The translations under genes were made by a program, and so were the position numbers. The notes under the pieces are model-generated. The model was not told where the DNA came from. It worked only from the letters and a program-made list of their open reading frames with translations, and did no database searches. Below are positions 10,145 to 42,543 of a stretch of 45,938 nucleotides of DNA, piece after piece (within the stretch, counting starts at the first letter, position 1; every line of letters begins with the position of its first letter). The stretch comes from a virus (lineage: Duplodnaviria; Caudoviricetes): positions 1 through 45,938 of IMG/VR virus record IMGVR_UViG_3300044580_000271. One strand, given 5' to 3'.

Positions 10145-10306
10145 TTAAAAATGATTTAAATGTTCGTAATTTTTTGTGAAATTTTTGTCTTCGTCTAGAA
10201 TGCCAGCGTTAATAAGAGTATTGAGAGCTTCTTTTTTAGAAGTTCTCTTCTTTTTTGCTAATTTTTTTAACAAAACAATATCTTTATTTTTATTGCAATT
10301 CTTCAT
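10145..10306 (-). CDS. Small basic hypothetical protein (53 aa)
   Basis: Read manually: MKNCNKNKDIVLLKKLAKKKRTSKKEALNTLINAGILDEDKNF...; overlaps the upstream stop. Confidence 0.5.
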   Translation of the reverse strand: MKNCNKNKDIVLLKKLAKKKRTSKKEALNTLINAGILDEDKNFTKNYEHLNHF

Positions 10307-11327
10307 CAGAGAGAGTGGTCATGTCATCAAACTGAGAAAAGTTGTTAATTTTAGAAAAGTATTTGTTATTTCGTAGTTCTTCTTGTTTAGATGGGCACAT
10401 TTCATGAATCTTCTTGACTCTCATATGCTCTTTGACCATCTCATAAACTTCTTTCCAATCTGCTCCAATAGATTGAATCCAATCTTTATGTTTTTCAACT
10501 AACTTAGCAGAAACAAACTCATGACCATGTGCGGGCCAAGCCCCTGGCTTTGTAAAAGACTGTTTAGTAACATCAGCTTTTCCTAAATCATGAAATAAAG
10601 CGGCGACAGCATTATTCATGCCTCCCGTTTTACGGGCTCTATTGTAAACTATAGTAATATGTTTCAATACGTCACCTTCTGGATGCCAATAGGCACTTTG
10701 GGGGGTATTGCCACAACGTCTTAAATAGTCTTGTATTTCTTTTGGAGAGGCTTTTGATATTTCTTCAAATGTTGGTATGTAATTCATTGATTGTAAATTT
10801 TCTTTTACTATTCTTAAATTGGAAACTAACTCAAATCTTATATCTAAATGTGGATTTTTTCTTTTGGCTCTATTTATTATTGGCAAATAAGCATTTGTTA
10901 TTTCTTGTTCAGTAAATTCATTTCTGTATTCATCTAAAACTAAATTACTTTCTCCCATTCCTATCATATCAGTATTTCCAACTCTTTGAATACTAATAAA
11001 TTCAGTAGGTAATTTATGAATCCATCTATGGGGTACTGTAACTAAATTTTGAAATTGTAATGAATCTAAAATAGTTTGATGAATACAATTTGCTTTTATT
11101 GATAAATAAACATTTCCTTTTTTGTCTATAATTCCTCTTACATCCGGGGCGATATTACTTAAAGATGAAGGATTTACAATGACCTTAGCTTTTTCATTAA
11201 TGTCTATAATCTTATCTCTATTTTGAGCAATTTCATATTCTTGATTAAACTCATCAAATTCATCAGGAATATAAAATCTTTTAGAAGCATAAACATCACC
11301 TATGCCTTCTCTAACAATTTTAGTCAT
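10290..11327 (-). CDS. Two-domain protein with C-terminal HD phosphohydrolase (type found with CCA-adding enzymes)
   Basis: Q..YWHPEGDVLKH...ALFHDLGK...HGHE...HM motifs. Confidence 0.75.
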   Translation of the reverse strand: MTKIVREGIGDVYASKRFYIPDEFDEFNQEYEIAQNRDKIIDINEKAKVIVNPSSLSNIAPDVRGIIDKKGNVYLSIKANCIHQTILDSLQFQNLVTVPHRWIHKLPTEFISIQRVGNTDMIGMGESNLVLDEYRNEFTEQEITNAYLPIINRAKRKNPHLDIRFELVSNLRIVKENLQSMNYIPTFEEISKASPKEIQDYLRRCGNTPQSAYWHPEGDVLKHITIVYNRARKTGGMNNAVAALFHDLGKADVTKQSFTKPGAWPAHGHEFVSAKLVEKHKDWIQSIGADWKEVYEMVKEHMRVKKIHEMCPSKQEELRNNKYFSKINNFSQFDDMTTLSDEELQ

Positions 11328-11397: not shown

Positions 11398-11529
11398 TTA
11401 ATTATAAAGCTGATCCGGATCACTTAATGGAAGAGCTTCACGTAAAATCATTAAACTTCCACGATGAACGTACTTATCAAAATGAAGTTCAGTATTATCT
11501 TTTTCCAAATGAATCTTTGTTTCTGACAT
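11398..11529 (-). CDS. Small hypothetical protein (43 aa, possibly frameshifted)
   Basis: MSETKIHLEKDNTELHFDKYVHRGSLMILREALP...; coding-like sequence continues in another frame to ~11351. Confidence 0.35.
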   Translation of the reverse strand: MSETKIHLEKDNTELHFDKYVHRGSLMILREALPLSDPDQLYN

Positions 11530-11992
11530 AATTATTTAGTATTCGTAAGACTTCTGCATTTGGTAAAATGTGTTTATTGTTTATTTTGAAATACTCTTTA
11601 TCTCCTCTTAAGTAATCTAAGGCAAATTGCCCAATTGCCCCACTCCTGCTTATTCCAGCTGCACAATGTACCAATAGAACTTTTACATCTTTATTGTTAT
11701 CAAGAAAATTAACTACGCGTTTTGCATCTTCTTCAGTAAAAGCTCTAGTTTTCCCTGAATTTGTTGGGGAAATTTCTAAATCGTTTTTAACATCATCGAA
11801 AAAAAGATTGAGTACATTATGGTGAGGCTGGGTAAATAAAGGTGTGTGATAATAATTTCCTTCAGTATCATTGATGCAAATAAATGCATAATTTATTATA
11901 GCATCAACAGAATCATCGTTGATGTTATTTCTTTCTAATACTTCCTGAAATTGAACTTTTGGAAACACGTAAATTTTTACTTTCTCATCCAT
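11495..11992 (-). CDS. Cys-dependent (PTP/dual-specificity) phosphatase
   Basis: HCAAGISRS CX5R P-loop; upstream FDD general-acid motif. Confidence 0.85.
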   Translation of the reverse strand: MDEKVKIYVFPKVQFQEVLERNNINDDSVDAIINYAFICINDTEGNYYHTPLFTQPHHNVLNLFFDDVKNDLEISPTNSGKTRAFTEEDAKRVVNFLDNNKDVKVLLVHCAAGISRSGAIGQFALDYLRGDKEYFKINNKHILPNAEVLRILNNYVRNKDSFGKR

Positions 11993-11995
11993 AAA

Positions 11996-13156
11996 TTATG
12001 TTTTATATTTTTCAACTATTTCTTTTGCTTTATTTAATCTGTAGGTTTTTTCTAAAATAAATTGAACTTTTTTAGTCTTGTATTTATTCTTATCATCGAT
12101 ATAAGCTCTCATGAAATCGAAATAAGGTTCTTTATGACAATTAGTTGCAAATTTAGCAAAATCACCATTGAATTCTGTTAAAAATCTGTTAAAAAGAGCT
12201 TCAACCTTTGAATCAATATGTGATGCATAATTATCAATAGCTTTGGTAACCATATTGATAAAATCAAAAGCATCTTTATCTTCTATTGGATTTAATTGAG
12301 ATACTAAATCATCCAATGTTTCCCTGTAGTAATTCTCAATGACATAATCTTCTCTAAATACGTTCATAGTTCTTAAACCATGAACAGTAAAGTACCACTG
12401 AGTCTTGACCTTCAACAACATACCGTCATCAAAAATAACTACCCACCCCTCTTTATCTTCCTCTACCTTTGATTTTTCAATCAATTGATCAAGAGTAAAT
12501 GATTCGTTTTTAATAAAGTACATGGTAGTTGGAATATTGCTTACTTCTGAAGCAGGGATATAGTCACCATTACTATTATTTCTCAATCCAATGAATCTAA
12601 GTTCTGGACTTCCATATTTAAGTACAATTCTATTAGCATAGGAAACATATTCGAAGAGAGGAGTAAATCCATCTTCAAGTTGTTTTTTAACCCATTTTGT
12701 GTGGTCTTCCCATGCAAACAATAATTGCTGTGATGATATTACTTGTTCATTATCAAATCCTCGTATAGTTTTGGCAAATAATTTTCCGTTTGGTAACATC
12801 ATAAATGCAACCAATGAACCATCTTCCTTTGAAGAAATATGCACAATATTCTTATCTTTAACTTTATCATACTGAGTTTCCTCTATCTGATTTATGTTAA
12901 AGAATTTAGGAAGCATTAAATATCGATTGAAAATAGTTCCATCTTCATTGAATACAAACGTAACTCCTCTCATATCGAAAGCAGTGATATTTGGTTCATT
13001 TGGAAGTGGGTTTGCAAAATGGTTATAGCCACATATAAAGTAATCAAATGCTGAAATTTTGTAGTTGTCTATTCTCCACATATGTTCAGAAAAATTGAAG
13101 TTGTTGTAATACTTGCAAATCTTCTGTGCGTCATTATATGTGACTAAATACTTCAT
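11996..13156 (-). CDS. T4 Rnl1-family RNA ligase
   Basis: RGxxF, KFFN, motif I KEDGS, FEY...NRIV, EGWV, KVK motifs. Confidence 0.85.
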   Translation of the reverse strand: MKYLVTYNDAQKICKYYNNFNFSEHMWRIDNYKISAFDYFICGYNHFANPLPNEPNITAFDMRGVTFVFNEDGTIFNRYLMLPKFFNINQIEETQYDKVKDKNIVHISSKEDGSLVAFMMLPNGKLFAKTIRGFDNEQVISSQQLLFAWEDHTKWVKKQLEDGFTPLFEYVSYANRIVLKYGSPELRFIGLRNNSNGDYIPASEVSNIPTTMYFIKNESFTLDQLIEKSKVEEDKEGWVVIFDDGMLLKVKTQWYFTVHGLRTMNVFREDYVIENYYRETLDDLVSQLNPIEDKDAFDFINMVTKAIDNYASHIDSKVEALFNRFLTEFNGDFAKFATNCHKEPYFDFMRAYIDDKNKYKTKKVQFILEKTYRLNKAKEIVEKYKT

Positions 13157-17535: not shown

Positions 17536-17898
17536 ATGAAATTCAAAATGACAAATTTCAGCAAGAACATCAGGATTGATTTAAGTGATCGAGAAGTACA
17601 TGTTCCAAAGAAAGAAAAATTCAAAGTAGTTAGAGAAGGAGAAGAATGGAATTCTCAATCAAATATATCTATGCTTTTTGGGTTAAGTGTTTTAGTTGCT
17701 CTTATATTTATGTTTATAAGTATAGCTGCTATAAACAAAGAATGGGAGTCTGTCGGTATTTGGTGCTTAATAACGTTTTTGATGTGTGCGTTGACATTGT
17801 TTATAGGTATACTAAAATATGAGTTTAAATGGCAGACATGGATATGGGTCTTTAATACTATTTTATGGTTTTTTAATACAATTTTACACATTGGATAA
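17536..17898 (+). CDS. Membrane protein (about 3 TM)
   Basis: Three hydrophobic segments. Confidence 0.6.
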   Translation: MKFKMTNFSKNIRIDLSDREVHVPKKEKFKVVREGEEWNSQSNISMLFGLSVLVALIFMFISIAAINKEWESVGIWCLITFLMCALTLFIGILKYEFKWQTWIWVFNTILWFFNTILHIG

Positions 17899-18277
17899 GA
17901 TATTAATCATAGTAAGAGGAATTCCTGGATGTGGAAAATCGACTTTCGCAAAGCTTCTGGGCCGTGCTATTTGCACAGCTGATGATTATCTAACAAGAAA
18001 CGGAAAGTACGAATGGTCTAGAGAAAATACTGGAAAGGCCCATGCATGGTGTCAGAGAAAATGTGAAAGATTCATGAAATCAAGAATAACTCCTGTCATT
18101 GTGGCCAATACTTCTACGACTGAAAAAGAACTTCATCCTTATTATGATTTAGCTAATAAATATGGTTTTGAAGTTTTCTCTATTATTGTTGAAAATCGTC
18201 ATAACGGCATTAATGAACATAATGTTCCAGAAGAAACTCTTGAAAAAATGAGAAATCGTTTTGATATTAAATTATAA
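17891..18277 (+). CDS. P-loop polynucleotide-kinase-like protein (AAA_33)
   Basis: RGIPGCGKST Walker A, ADD, VANT, HNVP motifs; TTG start inferred. Confidence 0.8.
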   Translation: MDKILIIVRGIPGCGKSTFAKLLGRAICTADDYLTRNGKYEWSRENTGKAHAWCQRKCERFMKSRITPVIVANTSTTEKELHPYYDLANKYGFEVFSIIVENRHNGINEHNVPEETLEKMRNRFDIKL

Positions 18278-38431: not shown

Positions 38432-38480
38432 TATATTTGCACTATCTATCAAAACTTTTTGTGGGCGAGTGTATATATAA
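38432..38480 (+). promoter_or_regulatory. Tandem promoters for the RNA island
   Basis: tatatttg at 38432; aaact-N16-atatat(aa) at 38452-38480. Confidence 0.55.
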
Positions 38481-38522
38481 TAATATTAAAAATGATTTAA
38501 AAAGCGATAAAGATTTTCAAAG

Positions 38523-38621
38523 ATGATGGCAACGTATTTAACATATAGCCCCTTTAGTTTACCACAACAACTTTGTGAAGAGCTATTTTATGCTCTTAAG
38601 GAGGGAAAGTATAGTGGTTAA
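38523..38621 (+). CDS. Putative attenuator leader peptide MMATYLTYSPFSLPQQLCEELFYALKEGKYSG
   Basis: 32-codon ORF; internal aggaggg is complementary to the terminator 5' arm ccctcct. Confidence 0.55.
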   Translation: MMATYLTYSPFSLPQQLCEELFYALKEGKYSG

Positions 38622-38651
38622 GTAGGTTGTCATACTCTATATAACTTCTTC

Positions 38652-38684
38652 ACCCTCCTCACGAAAGTCTGGAGGGTTTTTTTT
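38652..38684 (+). terminator. Intrinsic terminator at the head of the tRNA island (attenuator)
   Basis: accctcc-tcacgaaagtct-ggagggt plus T-run. Confidence 0.75.
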
Positions 38685-38722
38685 GGTTCTTTGACATATT
38701 GGTAACGTTAAAATAAGATTTC

Positions 38723-38764
38723 TTCGAACCTATTTTGAATATATAGTAGAAATAGGTTCGAATG
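38723..38764 (+). promoter_or_regulatory. 13-bp hairpin reaching the endonuclease start codon, promoter-like loop
   Basis: ttcgaacctattt / aaataggttcgaa; loop contains gaatatata. Confidence 0.7.
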
Positions 38765-39277
38765 AAAATCTGTGAAAATTGTAATAAAGAACACAATGGT
38801 TCTTATGGTAAAGGTAGATTTTGTTCTAAAACGTGTGCTAAATCATTTAGCACCAAAGAAAAAAGATTAGACATAAATATTAAAATAAGTCAAAAGCTAA
38901 AAGGATGTAAATCACCAAAACGAAAGGAGCCAAAAAAATGTTTGAATTGTGGAAATGATTGCCATAAAAAATTCTGTTCAGTTGAGTGTTATAAATTATA
39001 TTATCAAACATTACGAACTGCATTTGAAAATTATAAAATTAAATCACAATTTAAATTTAATGTTTATGATTATCCGAATTATTTTGAACTAATTCTGATT
39101 GAAAAATACGGGTGGTATTCTCCAACAAATAATCTTAATGGAGTTTCAAGAGATCATTTATATTCTGTTAAAGACGGATTTATAAATAATATTGACTGCA
39201 AAATAATTTCACACCCAGCCAATTGTAAATTAGTTCTTCATAAAGATAATCAAAAAAATATAAAAATTCATCTATAA
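38762..39277 (+). CDS. HNH-like homing endonuclease with N-terminal Zn-binding repeats (C-terminus probably frameshifted)
   Basis: CxxC...FCS..C repeats; SRDH...HPANC...HKDN. Confidence 0.7.
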   Translation: MKICENCNKEHNGSYGKGRFCSKTCAKSFSTKEKRLDINIKISQKLKGCKSPKRKEPKKCLNCGNDCHKKFCSVECYKLYYQTLRTAFENYKIKSQFKFNVYDYPNYFELILIEKYGWYSPTNNLNGVSRDHLYSVKDGFINNIDCKIISHPANCKLVLHKDNQKNIKIHL

Positions 39278-39311: not shown

Positions 39312-39382
39312 GGCGAATGGGCAGGACGGCCATGCGGGGGTCTGCAAAACCTCAGAATCCAGTTCAACTCTGGGATTCGCCT
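39312..39382 (+). tRNA. tRNA-Cys(GCA)
   Basis: ggcgaat/attcgcc acceptor; ct-GCA-aa loop. Confidence 0.85.
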
Positions 39383-39384
39383 CT

Positions 39385-39541
39385 AAACTGTAGTAATGTT
39401 AAGAGTTACTTCGTAGCTTTGGGAGCCGGTATCGCAAGATGTGGAGGTTCAAGTCCTTCTTCCCCGCACAGATATTCGCGGGGAATGGTGAAATGGTAGA
39501 CACGCCGTAAGAAAAAATACTCTAAACGAGTTTCTCAGTTT
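39385..39541 (+). ncRNA. Scaffold-A RNA carrying a circularly permuted Leu-type tRNA mimic
   Basis: aaactg/cagttt closing stem; order is variable arm, T-arm, loop-closed acceptor, D-arm. Confidence 0.75.
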
Positions 39542-39556
39542 TTATTTTATTTTTAT

Positions 39557-39632
39557 GCCGGCATAGTTCAGTAGGTAGAGCAGCTGTCTTGTAAACAGCA
39601 GGTCGGGGGTTCGAATCCGTCTGCCGGCTCCA
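39557..39632 (+). tRNA. tRNA-Thr(TGT)
   Basis: gctgt-ctTGTaa-acagc; encoded CCA. Confidence 0.92.
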
Positions 39633-39634
39633 AT

Positions 39635-39773
39635 GGGGAGAAAGTTTAAAAAAGAAAAAACACTCTAGTTGACTTTCTCATGTAAATGTAGTAATAACGA
39701 AGAGTTACTTCGAAGGTAAAACGTTAGTTTTGAAATACTAAATTTGTTGGTTCAAATCCAGCTCTCCCCGCCA
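39635..39773 (+). ncRNA. tRNA-like RNA with permuted scaffold A inserted in the D-loop; 8-nt anticodon loop
   Basis: ggggaga/tctcccc-g-cca; gttt/aaac D-stem enclosing 71 nt; intact T-arm. Confidence 0.75.
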
Positions 39774-39777
39774 AATA

Positions 39778-39854
39778 AAGTTGTAGTAATAAGAAGAGAT
39801 ACATCGTAGCTCCATAAATTACCACAAAAAACTCTTTTTTGAATTTCTCAACTT
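39778..39854 (+). ncRNA. Scaffold-A RNA, minimal copy
   Basis: aagttg-tagtaa...aagagatacatcg...actct...tttctc-aactt. Confidence 0.7.
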
Positions 39855-39858
39855 AAAC

Positions 39859-39932
39859 TGCCTTATAGCGTAATTGGCAGCGCGCAAGCCTCTGGAGCTT
39901 GGTCAGTCGGGGTTCGAGTCCCTGTAAGGCAA
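39859..39932 (+). tRNA. tRNA-Gln(CTG)
   Basis: caagc-ctCTGga-gcttg; tgcctta/taaggca acceptor. Confidence 0.9.
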
Positions 39933-40047
39933 CTGAGTGAACATTGTGGAGTTAGTGTAATGGTAGCACGCCCGGCGGGTGTCTGGGAAGACTGGTTCGA
40001 ATCCGGTACCATGATCGACACAATTGACTGTAGGGAATAGACCTACA
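39933..40047 (+). ncRNA. Scaffold-B RNA with a degenerate colinear tRNA insert
   Basis: ctgagtgaaca...tcgacac-aattgac-tgtagg-gaataga-cctaca; D-arm and T-arm inside. Confidence 0.7.
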
Positions 40048-40053
40048 AAAAAT

Positions 40054-40125
40054 TGCCCTATAGCACAATGGCCAGTGCACGGGACTTTGGATCCTGGGAT
40101 TCACGTTCGAGTCGTGGTGGGGCAG
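40054..40125 (+). tRNA. tRNA-Gln(TTG)
   Basis: cggga-ctTTGga-tcctg. Confidence 0.9.
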
Positions 40126-40251
40126 CTGAGTGAACATCGTCATTAAAGAGAGTTGAGGGTTCAAATCCCTCATATCGGTTCATAAACTGATATTAGTGTA
40201 ACGGTAACATACTGCAACGATCAACACGATTGACAGCAGGGAAAGACCTGC
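40126..40251 (+). ncRNA. Scaffold-B RNA with a circularly permuted tRNA mimic
   Basis: T-arm gaggg-ttcaaat-ccctc, closed acceptor atatcggtt-cata-aactgatat, then D-arm gtgt-aacggta-acat. Confidence 0.75.
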
Positions 40252-40255
40252 AAAA

Positions 40256-40329
40256 CGGGGTATAGCACAGTTGGTAGCGCGCATGCTTTGGGAGCATGAG
40301 GTCGTCGGTTCGAGCCCGGCTACCCCCGA
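40256..40329 (+). tRNA. tRNA-Pro(TGG)
   Basis: catgc-ttTGGga-gcatg; one extra C in the 3' acceptor strand. Confidence 0.88.
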
Positions 40330-40407
40330 CTGAATCAACAGCGTCAACGGGGGCCAGTTGGTGGCCCTGCGGTCCGTTCTAGATGATTGACTTCAGGGAA
40401 AGACCTG
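40330..40407 (+). ncRNA. Scaffold-B RNA, short copy
   Basis: ctgaatcaaca...gattgac-ttcagg-gaaaga-cctg; insert gggcca-gttgg-tggccc. Confidence 0.65.
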
Positions 40408-40411
40408 TAAC

Positions 40412-40493
40412 GCCCCCATAGGAGAATTGGTATATCCACCTGGCTTAGGACCAGGCGTCTATGACATTGAGAGTTCGAGTCTCTCTGGGGGCA
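40412..40493 (+). tRNA. tRNA-Leu(TAG)
   Basis: cctgg-ctTAGga-ccagg; long variable arm. Confidence 0.9.
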
Positions 40494-40500
40494 CAAATTT

Positions 40501-40541
40501 CATGGTTAACTCAAATATATAAAGTAAAAGAGTTAACCATG
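40501..40541 (+). promoter_or_regulatory. 12-bp hairpin sequestering the HNH start codon
   Basis: catggttaactc / gagttaaccatg; loop contains atatataa. Confidence 0.75.
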
Positions 40542-40967
40542 AATAAAAAAGAATTAGATAACGAAATTATTCAGGCTTGCAAAAAAAGTAGAACAATGTC
40601 TGAAGCATCAAAAATTATTGGAATTCCATATTCCACATTTAAACGAAAAACAATATTATTGGGTTTATGGAAACCAAATCAAGGAGGAAAAGGAATCGCA
40701 AATATATCACTTGAAGATGTATTTAATGGAAAAAAATATCTTAGAAGTTATCAATTAAAAAATAAATTAATTGCAGAAGGGTATAAAGAAGCAAAATGTG
40801 AAGAATGTGGATTAGGAGAAGAATGGAATGACAAAATTCTTGTACTAGAATTAGACCACATAAATGGAAATAAAAGGGATAATAGATTAGAAAATTTAAA
40901 AATATTGTGTCCAAATTGTCATTCACAAACACCAACTTTTAGAGGAAGAAAAAATGGAAATGAATAA
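40539..40967 (+). CDS. HNH homing endonuclease
   Basis: CEECG...LELDHINGNKRDNRLENLKILCPNCH; the ORF-track start overlaps tRNA-Leu, so 40539 is used. Confidence 0.9.
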   Translation: MNKKELDNEIIQACKKSRTMSEASKIIGIPYSTFKRKTILLGLWKPNQGGKGIANISLEDVFNGKKYLRSYQLKNKLIAEGYKEAKCEECGLGEEWNDKILVLELDHINGNKRDNRLENLKILCPNCHSQTPTFRGRKNGNE

Positions 40968-41129
40968 ACAATTTTTACAGTTTTTAGATTCATTAATTCA
41001 TAGTAAAAATTTTAATTTTCGATATAGATTAAAATTAAAAATTTCGACCCAAGGAAAAAATTTATGCAGCAGTATTTGATGAAAGAAGGATTAATGAACT
41101 TATAAATAATAATTTTCATGAATTGTAAT

Positions 41130-41202
41130 GCTCGGTTCGTCTAGTGGTCAGGACATCAGGTTTTCATCCTGGGGATCAGGGGTTCGACCCCCCTACCGAG
41201 TA
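41130..41202 (+). tRNA. tRNA-Glu(TTC)
   Basis: tcagg-ttTTCat-cctgg. Confidence 0.9.
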
Positions 41203-41207
41203 CAAAT

Positions 41208-41289
41208 GTTGCGTTATACAAGCGGCCAAAGTGGTCAGACCTTCAATCTGATTCGTAATGATTCGCGGGTTCGAATCCCGCACGCAATA
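41208..41289 (+). tRNA. Atypical long-variable-arm tRNA, anticodon TTC, C33; identity uncertain
   Basis: gttgcgt/acgcaat acceptor; tcaga-ccTTCaa-tctga; extended variable region. Confidence 0.65.
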
Positions 41290-41290
41290 C

Positions 41291-41377
41291 GTCCAAATGG
41301 TGGAATTGGTAGACACGCTAGCTTGAGGGGCTAGTGCCATAACAGGTTTGGGGGTTCGAGTCCCCCTTTGGACACCA
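41291..41377 (+). tRNA. tRNA-Leu(GAG)
   Basis: ctagc-ttGAGgg-gctag; encoded CCA. Confidence 0.92.
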
Positions 41378-41380
41378 AAT

Positions 41381-41461
41381 GCCGACGTTGAGCAATTGGC
41401 TGGCTCGCCTGACTGTAGATCAGGTCCTTCGGGCGTAGGGGTTCGAGTCCCTTCGGCGGCA
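41381..41461 (+). tRNA. tRNA-Tyr(GTA), variant with G37
   Basis: cctga-ctGTAga-tcagg; one A.G mismatch in the acceptor. Confidence 0.8.
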
Positions 41462-41581
41462 CAAAAGGTTAGTAATTCGGACGCCTAACCAGCAGAAGGA
41501 TGAAGTTTCCTTGGCGAAATTGATCGAAACAGTCTTGGTGGTTCTTGTACATGTCGTGATAAAGTGACCAAAAACTATAAC

Positions 41582-41654
41582 GGAGTCTTGGCAGAGTTGG
41601 TCAACGCGCTGGACTGAAAATCCAGAGATCCAGGTTCGATCCCAGGAGGCTCCA
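41582..41654 (+). tRNA. tRNA-Phe(GAA)
   Basis: ctgga-ctGAAaa-tccag. Confidence 0.88.
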
Positions 41655-41741
41655 CAAAAAATTTTCAAAAATATTTTTTTATTTGAAAACTTTTGATTAC
41701 ATTAGCCTTAGAATAAAAAACAGTTCTTTGATAAAGATACT

Positions 41742-42036
41742 TGGCTTAATCAGGCGCCCGTAGGGCGTATGGTCGTCGATTACCGAACCTCGGTTTACGA
41801 TCAATGATAATGAGAGTTGTAGTTCAAGAATGTAGCGTAAAGTTACTGCAGACTGCAATAGAAATTAGCCTGGTAGGAAATCCTCGGATTCCTATTAATC
41901 TCAATAGTAAGAGGACGTGAGAGATTATTAAGTCATTTACAGATTGGGGAATAGGTAGAGTGGTCTTCGACCGGTGGTAACTTGCAAGACCTGACTTTAG
42001 AAAACCGGCATGGGCGCGGGTGGCCCAACCCAATCT
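41742..42036 (+). ncRNA. Unassigned ~295-nt multi-hairpin RNA
   Basis: Closing stems tggcttaat/attaagtca and agattggg/cccaatct; many internal hairpins; own promoter-like site and boxA-like site upstream. Confidence 0.6.
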
Positions 42037-42039
42037 AAC

Positions 42040-42127
42040 GGGGCGATACCGAAGTGGCCAAACGGGCCCTGCCGTAAACAGGGTGGCTCTACGGAGTCTT
42101 CGATGGTTCGAATCCATTCTCACCCCA
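42040..42127 (+). tRNA. tRNA-Tyr(GTA), variant with C33
   Basis: ccctg-ccGTAaa-caggg; long variable arm; C.A mismatch in the acceptor. Confidence 0.8.
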
Positions 42128-42151
42128 CAAAAGATGTTCTTTGAAAATACT

Positions 42152-42456
42152 TGATTCAGCTAGGAGTGACCAAAATTTAGATTAAATTAGAATTAATTAG
42201 TAAATGATGAAGAGGTTAAATTCCTCAAAAACAGACGGTTCGATTCCGTCGGCGGCTTTACCGTTAAAGGATGTAATATTAGATAATAATATGATAAAAA
42301 CGGTCCTATTAGGTCTATGCTTAAATGAAACTCCTTTAGGGTTCTAGATACCTAACACTTTCTCTAAGATTGTATGCCTTCGGGCTGGATGGAGAGAATG
42401 GATCAAAAGTGGCTGATGTCATTTAGTTGTGCTAGGATTCGCGATCTTAGCACAAC
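42152..42456 (+). ncRNA. Unassigned ~300-nt structured RNA with an internal T-arm
   Basis: tcagcta/tggctga closing stem; gacgg-ttcgatt-ccgtc; 13-bp terminal hairpin at 42426-42456. Confidence 0.5.
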
Positions 42457-42460
42457 AATC

Positions 42461-42543
42461 GGGAAGGTACCGAAGCGGTCAACCGGGACAGACTGTAAAT
42501 CTGTTGGCTTAGGCCTTCGTAGGTTCGAATCCTGCCCTTCCCA
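42461..42543 (+). tRNA. tRNA-Tyr(GTA), canonical
   Basis: acaga-ctGTAaa-tctgt; gggaagg/ccttccc acceptor. Confidence 0.92.

Follow-up and report, generated by a model that had tools for sequence, protein, structure and literature searches.

Leader-peptide attenuators are known from trpL, hisL and pheL of E. coli and Salmonella, from the multivalent thrL and ilvGMEDA leaders, and from pheM located in front of pheST. The T-box riboswitch senses tRNA status and controls a terminator. Leader-peptide attenuation of amino acid operons is described in general terms in the accessible text of PMC4833913, and a genome-wide attenuator survey (PMC2965389) mentions neither attenuated tRNA arrays nor phages in its accessible part. 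The purpose of phage tRNAs has been debated for 50 years, codon compensation being set against a substitute role for host tRNAs that have been depleted or cleaved (PMC10264068, accessible sections). According to the same sections and those of PMC11464382, phage tRNAs counter tRNA-depleting or tRNA-cleaving defences, as in the case of PARIS and T5. The trn operon (L-array) of Anabaena PCC 7120 is, in the available text of two papers, under the control of TrcR (PMC8421152; PMC10272220). No description of leader-peptide control over tRNA genes was found in the accessible open literature.

Organisation of the leader and the tRNA units

The window, i.e., the whole 45,938-base virus record analysed here, contains exactly one leader unit; the leader and the tRNA units are on the plus strand. 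A preliminary description had placed promoters and a 32-codon ORF in front of an intrinsic terminator preceding all the tRNAs, with a stretch of the ORF complementary to the terminator, and these parts are indeed there. The promoter-like element TAnnTTTG (38432..38439), which we take to be the Bacteroidota housekeeping -7 consensus, occurs in 37 of 57 family leaders (4.3 in shuffled sequences) and is kept in L336, the orthologue of the window leader (74% identity). A second promoter-like element, AAACTT-N-TATA (38452..38481), occurs in 14 of 57 leaders (1.5 in shuffled ones), is absent from L336 and possibly serves a phage sigma factor.

The ORF (38523..38621) is present in the ORF list. Its translation likely starts at the second ATG (38526), which is favoured by the spacing of the ACATA motif (38541..38545), a frame-independent hallmark of the family located 15 nt past the A of this start codon. 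In 24 of 37 leaders ACATA starts 15–17 nt past the A, with each of the three frames represented, and it was also found in 7 of 20 hold-out leaders, compared to 3 of 273 ordinary ORF starts. Our guess is that it may act as a polymerase pause letting the ribosome load. Codons 2–21 form the predicted sensing zone, which includes a predicted anti-antiterminator strand (region 1, 38550..38555) expected to pair with 38600–38605 when the ribosome is absent. The antiterminator strand aggaggg (region 2, 38599..38605) is complementary to the 5' arm of the terminator (38653..38684), which is made of CCCTCC (38653–38658), GGAGGG (38671–38676) and an 8-T tract (38677–38684). A boxA-like element (38686..38701) follows, and all 14 tRNA genes found by ARAGORN lie downstream of the terminator.

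L336 keeps aggaggg, both terminator arms and boxA, with a changed loop and spacer. Additional tatag/ctata pairing, also proposed in the preliminary description, is present in the window, is lost in L336 and is not conserved; judging from this comparison, it is dispensable. The ORF of L336 has indels of 3 and 6 nt only, with the frame kept, and one stretch of the peptide is invariant at the protein level despite synonymous changes. pN/pS is 0.48 by rough counting over 45 tree edges and 94 distinct ORFs, which indicates that the leader reading frame is under purifying selection. The same pN/pS value and invariant run could be expected if the peptide acted in trans, or if the nascent chain together with a ligand arrested the ribosome, codon supply not being decisive; a trans-acting leader peptide, peTrpL, has been reported in the accessible literature. 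We consider this very unlikely: the family peptides are unrelated, 32 of them falling into 18 clusters, and yet the layout is fixed, a codon sensor would show purifying selection too, and the leader peptide has no Pfam match. The leader does not belong to any Rfam family either; the T-box riboswitch was rejected, as its Rfam model gave no match, either with the gathering score or with the E limit relaxed to 5.

By itself, the window locus is no more than suggestive. The predicted energy is -14.4 kcal/mol for the terminator hairpin (z -1.9 against shuffles) and -19.7 kcal/mol for the antiterminator fold (z -2.1), each helix being about 2 SD beyond shuffles, and the shuffle p for aggaggg alone is 0.02–0.065. 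The hairpin at 38653–38684 was absent from the output of a generic terminator scan.

An ORF at 38762..39277, located between boxA and the first tRNA, looks zinc-finger/HNH-like by eye and has no Pfam match. It is missing from L003 and from the contigs of runs X5 and X20, and by this comparison is an optional insert; runs X1 and X18 have a one-base difference near its end. A perfect hairpin (38722–38761) encloses a TATATA motif and ends at the start codon of this ORF. The late-promoter and translation-block hairpins of homing endonuclease genes are similar.

The first tRNA unit (39312..41655), predicted to be the regulated one, includes 12 ARAGORN genes (Cys, two Thr, two Gln, Pro, two Leu, two Glu, Tyr and Phe) and an HNH gene (40461–40967). 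In the Glu(TTC) gene reported by ARAGORN at 41208–41290, the variable arm is long and the anticodon loop, CCTTCAA, is unusual; the identity of this tRNA is doubtful. Three copies of a GTAGTAAT-n-AAGAGWTACWTCG motif are located at 39335–39470, 39635–39772 and 39783–39850. Downstream of two of them, an anticodon arm and a T arm resembling those of tRNAs can be recognised, which end in TCTCCCC/TTCCCCGC-CA. These copies resemble tRNA-like RNAs with a large D-arm insert and were missed by ARAGORN; Rfam gave 23 bits for 39699–39770. Another hairpin motif, TTGAC-n-AGGGAA(A/T)AGACC, is found between tRNA genes (40017–40050, 40222–40253 and 40385–40410), each copy sitting after a degenerate tRNA-like piece. 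Elsewhere in the window, tyrosine-phosphatase-like, T4 Rnl1-like RNA ligase and HD-domain/CCA-enzyme-like genes (11495–13156 and 10290–11327) and a kinase-like ORF (17819–18277) were recognised by eye as a possible tRNA repair set.

The attenuator had been proposed to gate the whole tRNA/ncRNA island. This likely holds for the first 12 tRNA genes and probably does not extend to the ncRNA part. An ncRNA-like stretch and two tRNA-Tyr genes lie behind their own promoter-like site (recognised by eye, one mismatch to TAnnTTTG) and boxA, at about 41670..41734, with neither leader nor terminator. A separate ncRNA/tRNA-Tyr unit probably begins here, leaving 39312–41655 as the only stretch likely gated by the attenuator. 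A long intergenic stretch past the second boxA (41740–42480) has a third boxA at 42136 and no Rfam family. It is covered by long contigs from RNA runs X9, X12, X13 and X16 (41740–42482, depth 22–77) and is a candidate for abundant phage ncRNAs around tRNA-Tyr. The first tRNA unit is represented by short RNA-run contigs of depth 2–4 and the leader by none in the four runs, contigs being unable to rank expression.

Contigs from four other studies carry the leader sequence too, differing by one synonymous change, and hence it is not an assembly artefact. The clamp-loader gene of the window is closest to those of Lak phages of Prevotella, the best match being Lak-A2 (45% identity). Together with the Bacteroidota-type promoter and boxA motifs, this suggests that the host is probably within Bacteroidota. 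A T run followed by boxA was found neither in Lak-A2 nor in LR756504. When the leader was compared by blastn with 50,697 phage records, seven short matches were obtained, all unrelated; the tRNA block matched phage records at 8–9% coverage, with no cultured relative among them. A search with a neighbouring ORF gave three close relatives and eight weak matches.

The leader family and co-variation of its helices

Family sites were found through boxA patterns, and the ORF was never part of any search pattern. In viral contigs, the search for boxA preceded by a T run gave at least 122 loci, and a second pattern gave 91; a pattern of the same kind gave 15 loci in the genome scan and at least 120 in the metagenome scan. 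A G/C plus T-run end was required in the 91-locus viral, genome and metagenome patterns. Among the matches listed there are 166 distinct sites, 86 of them with tRNAs downstream. For these tRNA-linked viral sites, again among the matches listed, a terminator was recognised by a fixed rule in 80 of 86, and a terminator together with a short ORF (ATG, 20–50 codons, ending 18–45 nt before the terminator) in 78 of 86. The same layout was found in 77 of 79 tRNA-linked metagenome sites among the matches listed, compared to about 8% in shuffles, while the listed sites without tRNAs are mostly without a terminator. The 15 matches of the genome scan include no tRNA array with a leader, with the possible exception of L239 (1–2 tRNAs). 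The counts exclude six of 90 sites failing the terminator rule (two of which have one by eye), two sites without the ORF, and clusters in which no tRNA was seen; the start codon of L118 was picked by hand.

For pairing statistics, 37 representatives of clusters at 75% identity were used, along with a hold-out of 20 leaders less than 75% identical to the first set. In the representatives, pairing of the last 35 nt of the ORF with a terminator 5' arm has an energy of -11.9 kcal/mol when the arm is the leader's own and -7.0 kcal/mol when it is foreign. Own-arm pairing beats the foreign mean in 35 of 37 (p 2e-10) and in 18 of 20 hold-out leaders, and beats own shuffles at p <0.05 in 18 of 37. The signal is confined to positions -40 to +10 relative to the ORF stop. 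The antiterminator, therefore, co-varies with the terminator across the family.

Leader composition, boxA and the downstream tRNAs

The preliminary description pointed out that the leader peptide holds all of C, T, Q, P, L, E, Y and F, the amino acids served by the array. This is true and weak when taken alone, as all eight are also found in 9 of 56 other leaders and in 2.5% of random 31-aa windows. At positions 2–21, 17 of 20 codons are served by the array, while in the last 10 codons only four are. At least 16 matching codons of 20 were found in 0.3% of 9,810 overlapping random windows and in one of 56 other leaders, namely L336. No tRNA was detected in the unit for the leader codons TTA, AGC, AGT and GCA, and tRNA-Gln(CTG) and tRNA-Thr(GGT) have no corresponding codon in the window leader.

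Across the family (n=37), the share of core codons served by the own array is 0.52, compared to 0.33 for permuted arrays (z 9.0, 0 of 20,000 permutations). In control comparisons with 32 leaders z was -0.2 for frame +1, 2.2 for frame +2, 0.2 for the reverse complement and 0.3 for the last 8 codons, and a neighbouring-gene control at 31 loci gave -0.9. The match persists with one leader per cluster (z 7.6–8.0 for 25 clusters, 5.9–6.8 for 18 peptide clusters and 4.2–4.7 for 9 clusters) and in the hold-out (n=10, z 4.1, 1 of 20,000). Leader amino acids match the own array in frame only, and only upstream of about codon -10. Several leaders (L141, L038, L055 and L168) show no advantage of their own array over foreign arrays. 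It is mainly at the amino acid level that leaders and arrays match; the anticodon match is modest, the isoacceptor test giving 54 of 78 against 43 expected (z 2.7), driven mostly by Ile. An ORF standing by chance in front of an ordinary terminator would be consistent with the single-locus folding z near -2 and with the nine other leaders holding all eight amino acids. It is contradicted by the family statistics, the hold-out replication and the conservation in the orthologue, and we find it scarcely credible.

A fuller view, though not a new sample due to overlap with the first set, was provided by longer regions, 19 from 18 viral records plus the window, in which units were located without using boxA. 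Here 307 of 377 tRNA genes lie behind a leader, the own-array match is 0.76 vs 0.46 (n=27), and the leader covers 92% of the amino acids of its own array vs 63%. Within-genome swaps in genomes with two units showed that the own block fits better in seven of eight cases (mean 0.68 vs 0.25); the one exception, L417, in which the second ORF is doubtful, was retained in the count. In L413, two blocks serve nearly complementary sets of amino acids, and the match is 1.0 with own and 0.12 with swapped blocks. Tandem repetition of only one to three kinds of control codons is seen neither in the window leader nor in the family: the longest codon run is two in the window leader and three in the family, and 6–18 amino acids are sampled. 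A distinct Lys/Tyr/Met-rich leader type is located before small Lys, Tyr and Met tRNA blocks (L425, L426, L274, L283 and L372).

The boxA-like element was overlooked in the preliminary description. Its 16-mer is identical to that in the 16S–23S spacers of two Bacteroidota rRNA operons, 60 nt before 23S in L242 and past the spacer tRNAs in L241; such a placement was found for these 2 of 15 genome boxA matches. The boxA is therefore of the host-group sequence type, as in a rrn antitermination leader. The 9-mer core GTTCTTTGA occurs four times in the window (0.8 expected), three of the four being inside the island. It can be suggested that boxA and the host Nus complex regulate the array in the manner of rRNA operons, the terminator serving to insulate or leak and the ORF being incidental. 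The match to rrn spacers and the clustering of GTTCTTTGA in the island fit this, and boxA was described as necessary and sufficient for rrnTAC in the accessible text of PMC10250234. However, boxA is located 3' of the T tract, so that termination has already been decided by the time the polymerase transcribes it. Such regulation would leave unexplained the ORF, the co-variation of the antiterminator and the in-frame composition match, and in leader units without boxA the match to the array is just as present. This makes a purely boxA-based regulation, in our opinion, most improbable.

Proposed switch and its relation to known systems

In our switch model, as is commonly assumed, only the RNA between the ribosome and the polymerase can fold. 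It replaced a first model where RNA upstream of the ribosome could pair with RNA downstream, and results of both are reported. In the window, the modelled antiterminator probability exceeds 0.9 with the A site at codons 2–21 (20–22 depending on footprint) and is gone by codons 24–25; the modelled switch of L336 is similar. The modelled family mean is 0.83 up to codon -15 and then falls through 0.50 at -9 to 0.03 at -4. The composition match fades at about codon -10 independently of the switch model, so it ends about where the modelled switch closes, a position agreeing with the mechanism. In the model, then, the antiterminator is exclusive with the terminator and is covered by the ribosome late in the ORF, and the codons cognate to the downstream genes lie in the zone where a stall would act. 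With pairing across the ribosome allowed, as in the first model, the ON zone shrinks to codons 2–15. In equilibrium folding of the full-length leader, the terminator is favoured as soon as the ribosome has moved beyond about codon 9, which means that the switch must depend on co-transcriptional kinetics.

Without a ribosome, the window leader is predicted to form a long helix hiding aggaggg and to be OFF. A start-codon knockout, proposed earlier as a refuting test, is thus predicted to be OFF as well and cannot refute attenuation in the way intended. The region 1:2 protector helix is predicted in the window leader and L336, and in only 11 of 57 leaders; in most relatives the modelled antiterminator forms in the absence of a ribosome (mean P 0.64; <0.2 in 11 of 57). 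The latter would suit a general translation-stress sensor opened by any slowing of ribosomes (antibiotics, ribosome or factor toxins, host shut-off), for which the composition match would be secondary tuning. So would the absence of homopolymer runs (longest 3) and the induction of the Anabaena tRNA array by translation inhibitors (accessible text of PMC8421152). However, a composition that tracks each array, and complementary sets where one genome has two arrays, as seen in the swapped blocks of L413, would be unnecessary for such a sensor, and the window leader is predicted OFF without a ribosome. We consider a general sensor improbable, though less so than the alternatives discussed above.

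The preliminary reading of the locus as ribosome-mediated attenuation held across an independent family, in layout, co-variation, purifying selection and the zone-restricted composition match. We are fairly confident that the leader is a multivalent, ribosome-mediated transcription attenuator that carries a census of the amino acids of its array, slow decoding of which would switch the tRNAs on. This reading is based on observed parts, their conservation and co-variation and the composition match, and on a modelled switch; leader translation, readthrough, Nus loading and the trigger are what we infer from them. Host RNA polymerase would start near 38445–38490, and a ribosome would load at 38526 and trail it. 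When decoding is fast, the ribosome would move beyond codon 22 and cover aggaggg, permitting the CCCTCC/GGAGGG hairpin to form and transcription to stop at about 38684. A ribosome lingering on any of codons 2–21, of which 17 of 20 encode C, E, F, L, P, Q, T or Y, would leave aggaggg free to pair with ccctcct, blocking the terminator. The readthrough polymerase would then cross boxA, likely load the host Nus antitermination complex and transcribe the 12 tRNA genes up to 41655. Once supplied, these tRNAs would let the ribosome move on and the switch close, providing negative feedback. As the layout and the match recur in dozens of phages, these tRNAs are likely made only when the corresponding codons are read poorly.

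Host tRNA-cleaving defence is a plausible natural trigger, with a chance we put at slightly under even, other candidates being a shortage of amino acids and a general slowing of translation. More tentatively, and with somewhat greater doubt, we propose a programmable decoding census in large Bacteroidota phages, in which every tRNA block has its own gating leader, leaders are rewritten as tRNAs are gained or lost, several blocks in a genome share out the amino acids, and host tRNAs destroyed by a defence nuclease are detected and just the block needed is made. An inducible codon-matched switch would make phage tRNAs an on-demand reserve. It would also make the debate over their purpose directly testable, as a 200-nt reporter would show which shortage opens which block, and could serve as a template for reporters of tRNA-specific stress. 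If the census reading is true, the leaders constitute a readable record of the tRNAs attacked by host defences. The family further provides a statistical example of gene content and a regulatory peptide evolving together.

Bacteroidota trp, his, phe/tyr and ilv leaders have the same build as the phage ones, the genes behind them being presumably ilvD, trpE, hisG and pheA as read from N-terminal sequences. The design of the phage attenuator was therefore probably taken over from the host. Among 16 Trp-Trp host leaders collected without bias, ACATA was found exactly in 4 and with at most one mismatch in 11, compared to 37 of 273 in the control. The 4 of 16 exact matches weaken ACATA as a universal mark of host attenuators. 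An earlier host search had demanded the motif and was circular, and its reversed-pattern control matched many genomes too. ACATA would be an undescribed fixed-position motif common to phage leaders and Bacteroidota host attenuators. Some ACATA host leaders with antiterminator and terminator (L249, L254, L270 and others) are Cys/Met-rich or mixed and precede no obvious amino acid enzymes; these are possibly undescribed host attenuators.

Compared with the known systems, the locus is closest in build to attenuators of amino acid operons, sharing with them a short ORF, an antiterminator at its 3' end, an intrinsic terminator and cognate codons. Unlike them, the phage leader is predicted to control tRNA genes instead of biosynthesis or synthetase genes, and phage leaders sample 6–18 amino acids singly over about 20 codons, whereas the classical ones use runs of 1–3. 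In addition, the phage leader is followed by boxA, and most relatives have no predicted 1:2 protector helix. The Anabaena L-array is similar in being, in the text available, a spare tRNA array, silent by default and induced by impaired translation. It differs in being controlled at initiation via direct repeats and the TrcR repressor, according to the same text; the main text of PMC8421152 does not contain 'attenuat', 'leader' or 'terminator' and describes no codon-specific sensing. The likeness to rrn leaders (PMC10250234, accessible text) comes from boxA, an identical 16-mer preceding stable-RNA genes, but the phage boxA sits past a conditional terminator, and in a phage. For counter-defence phage tRNAs, no sensing switch is described in the accessible sources (PMC10264068 is without 'attenuat', 'leader' and 'promoter' in the part available), while the array described here has a predicted sensor. 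Unlike the T-box, this sensor is predicted to work via the translating ribosome and for many amino acids at once. Attenuation would thereby be extended from enzymes to tRNAs themselves, and to viruses.
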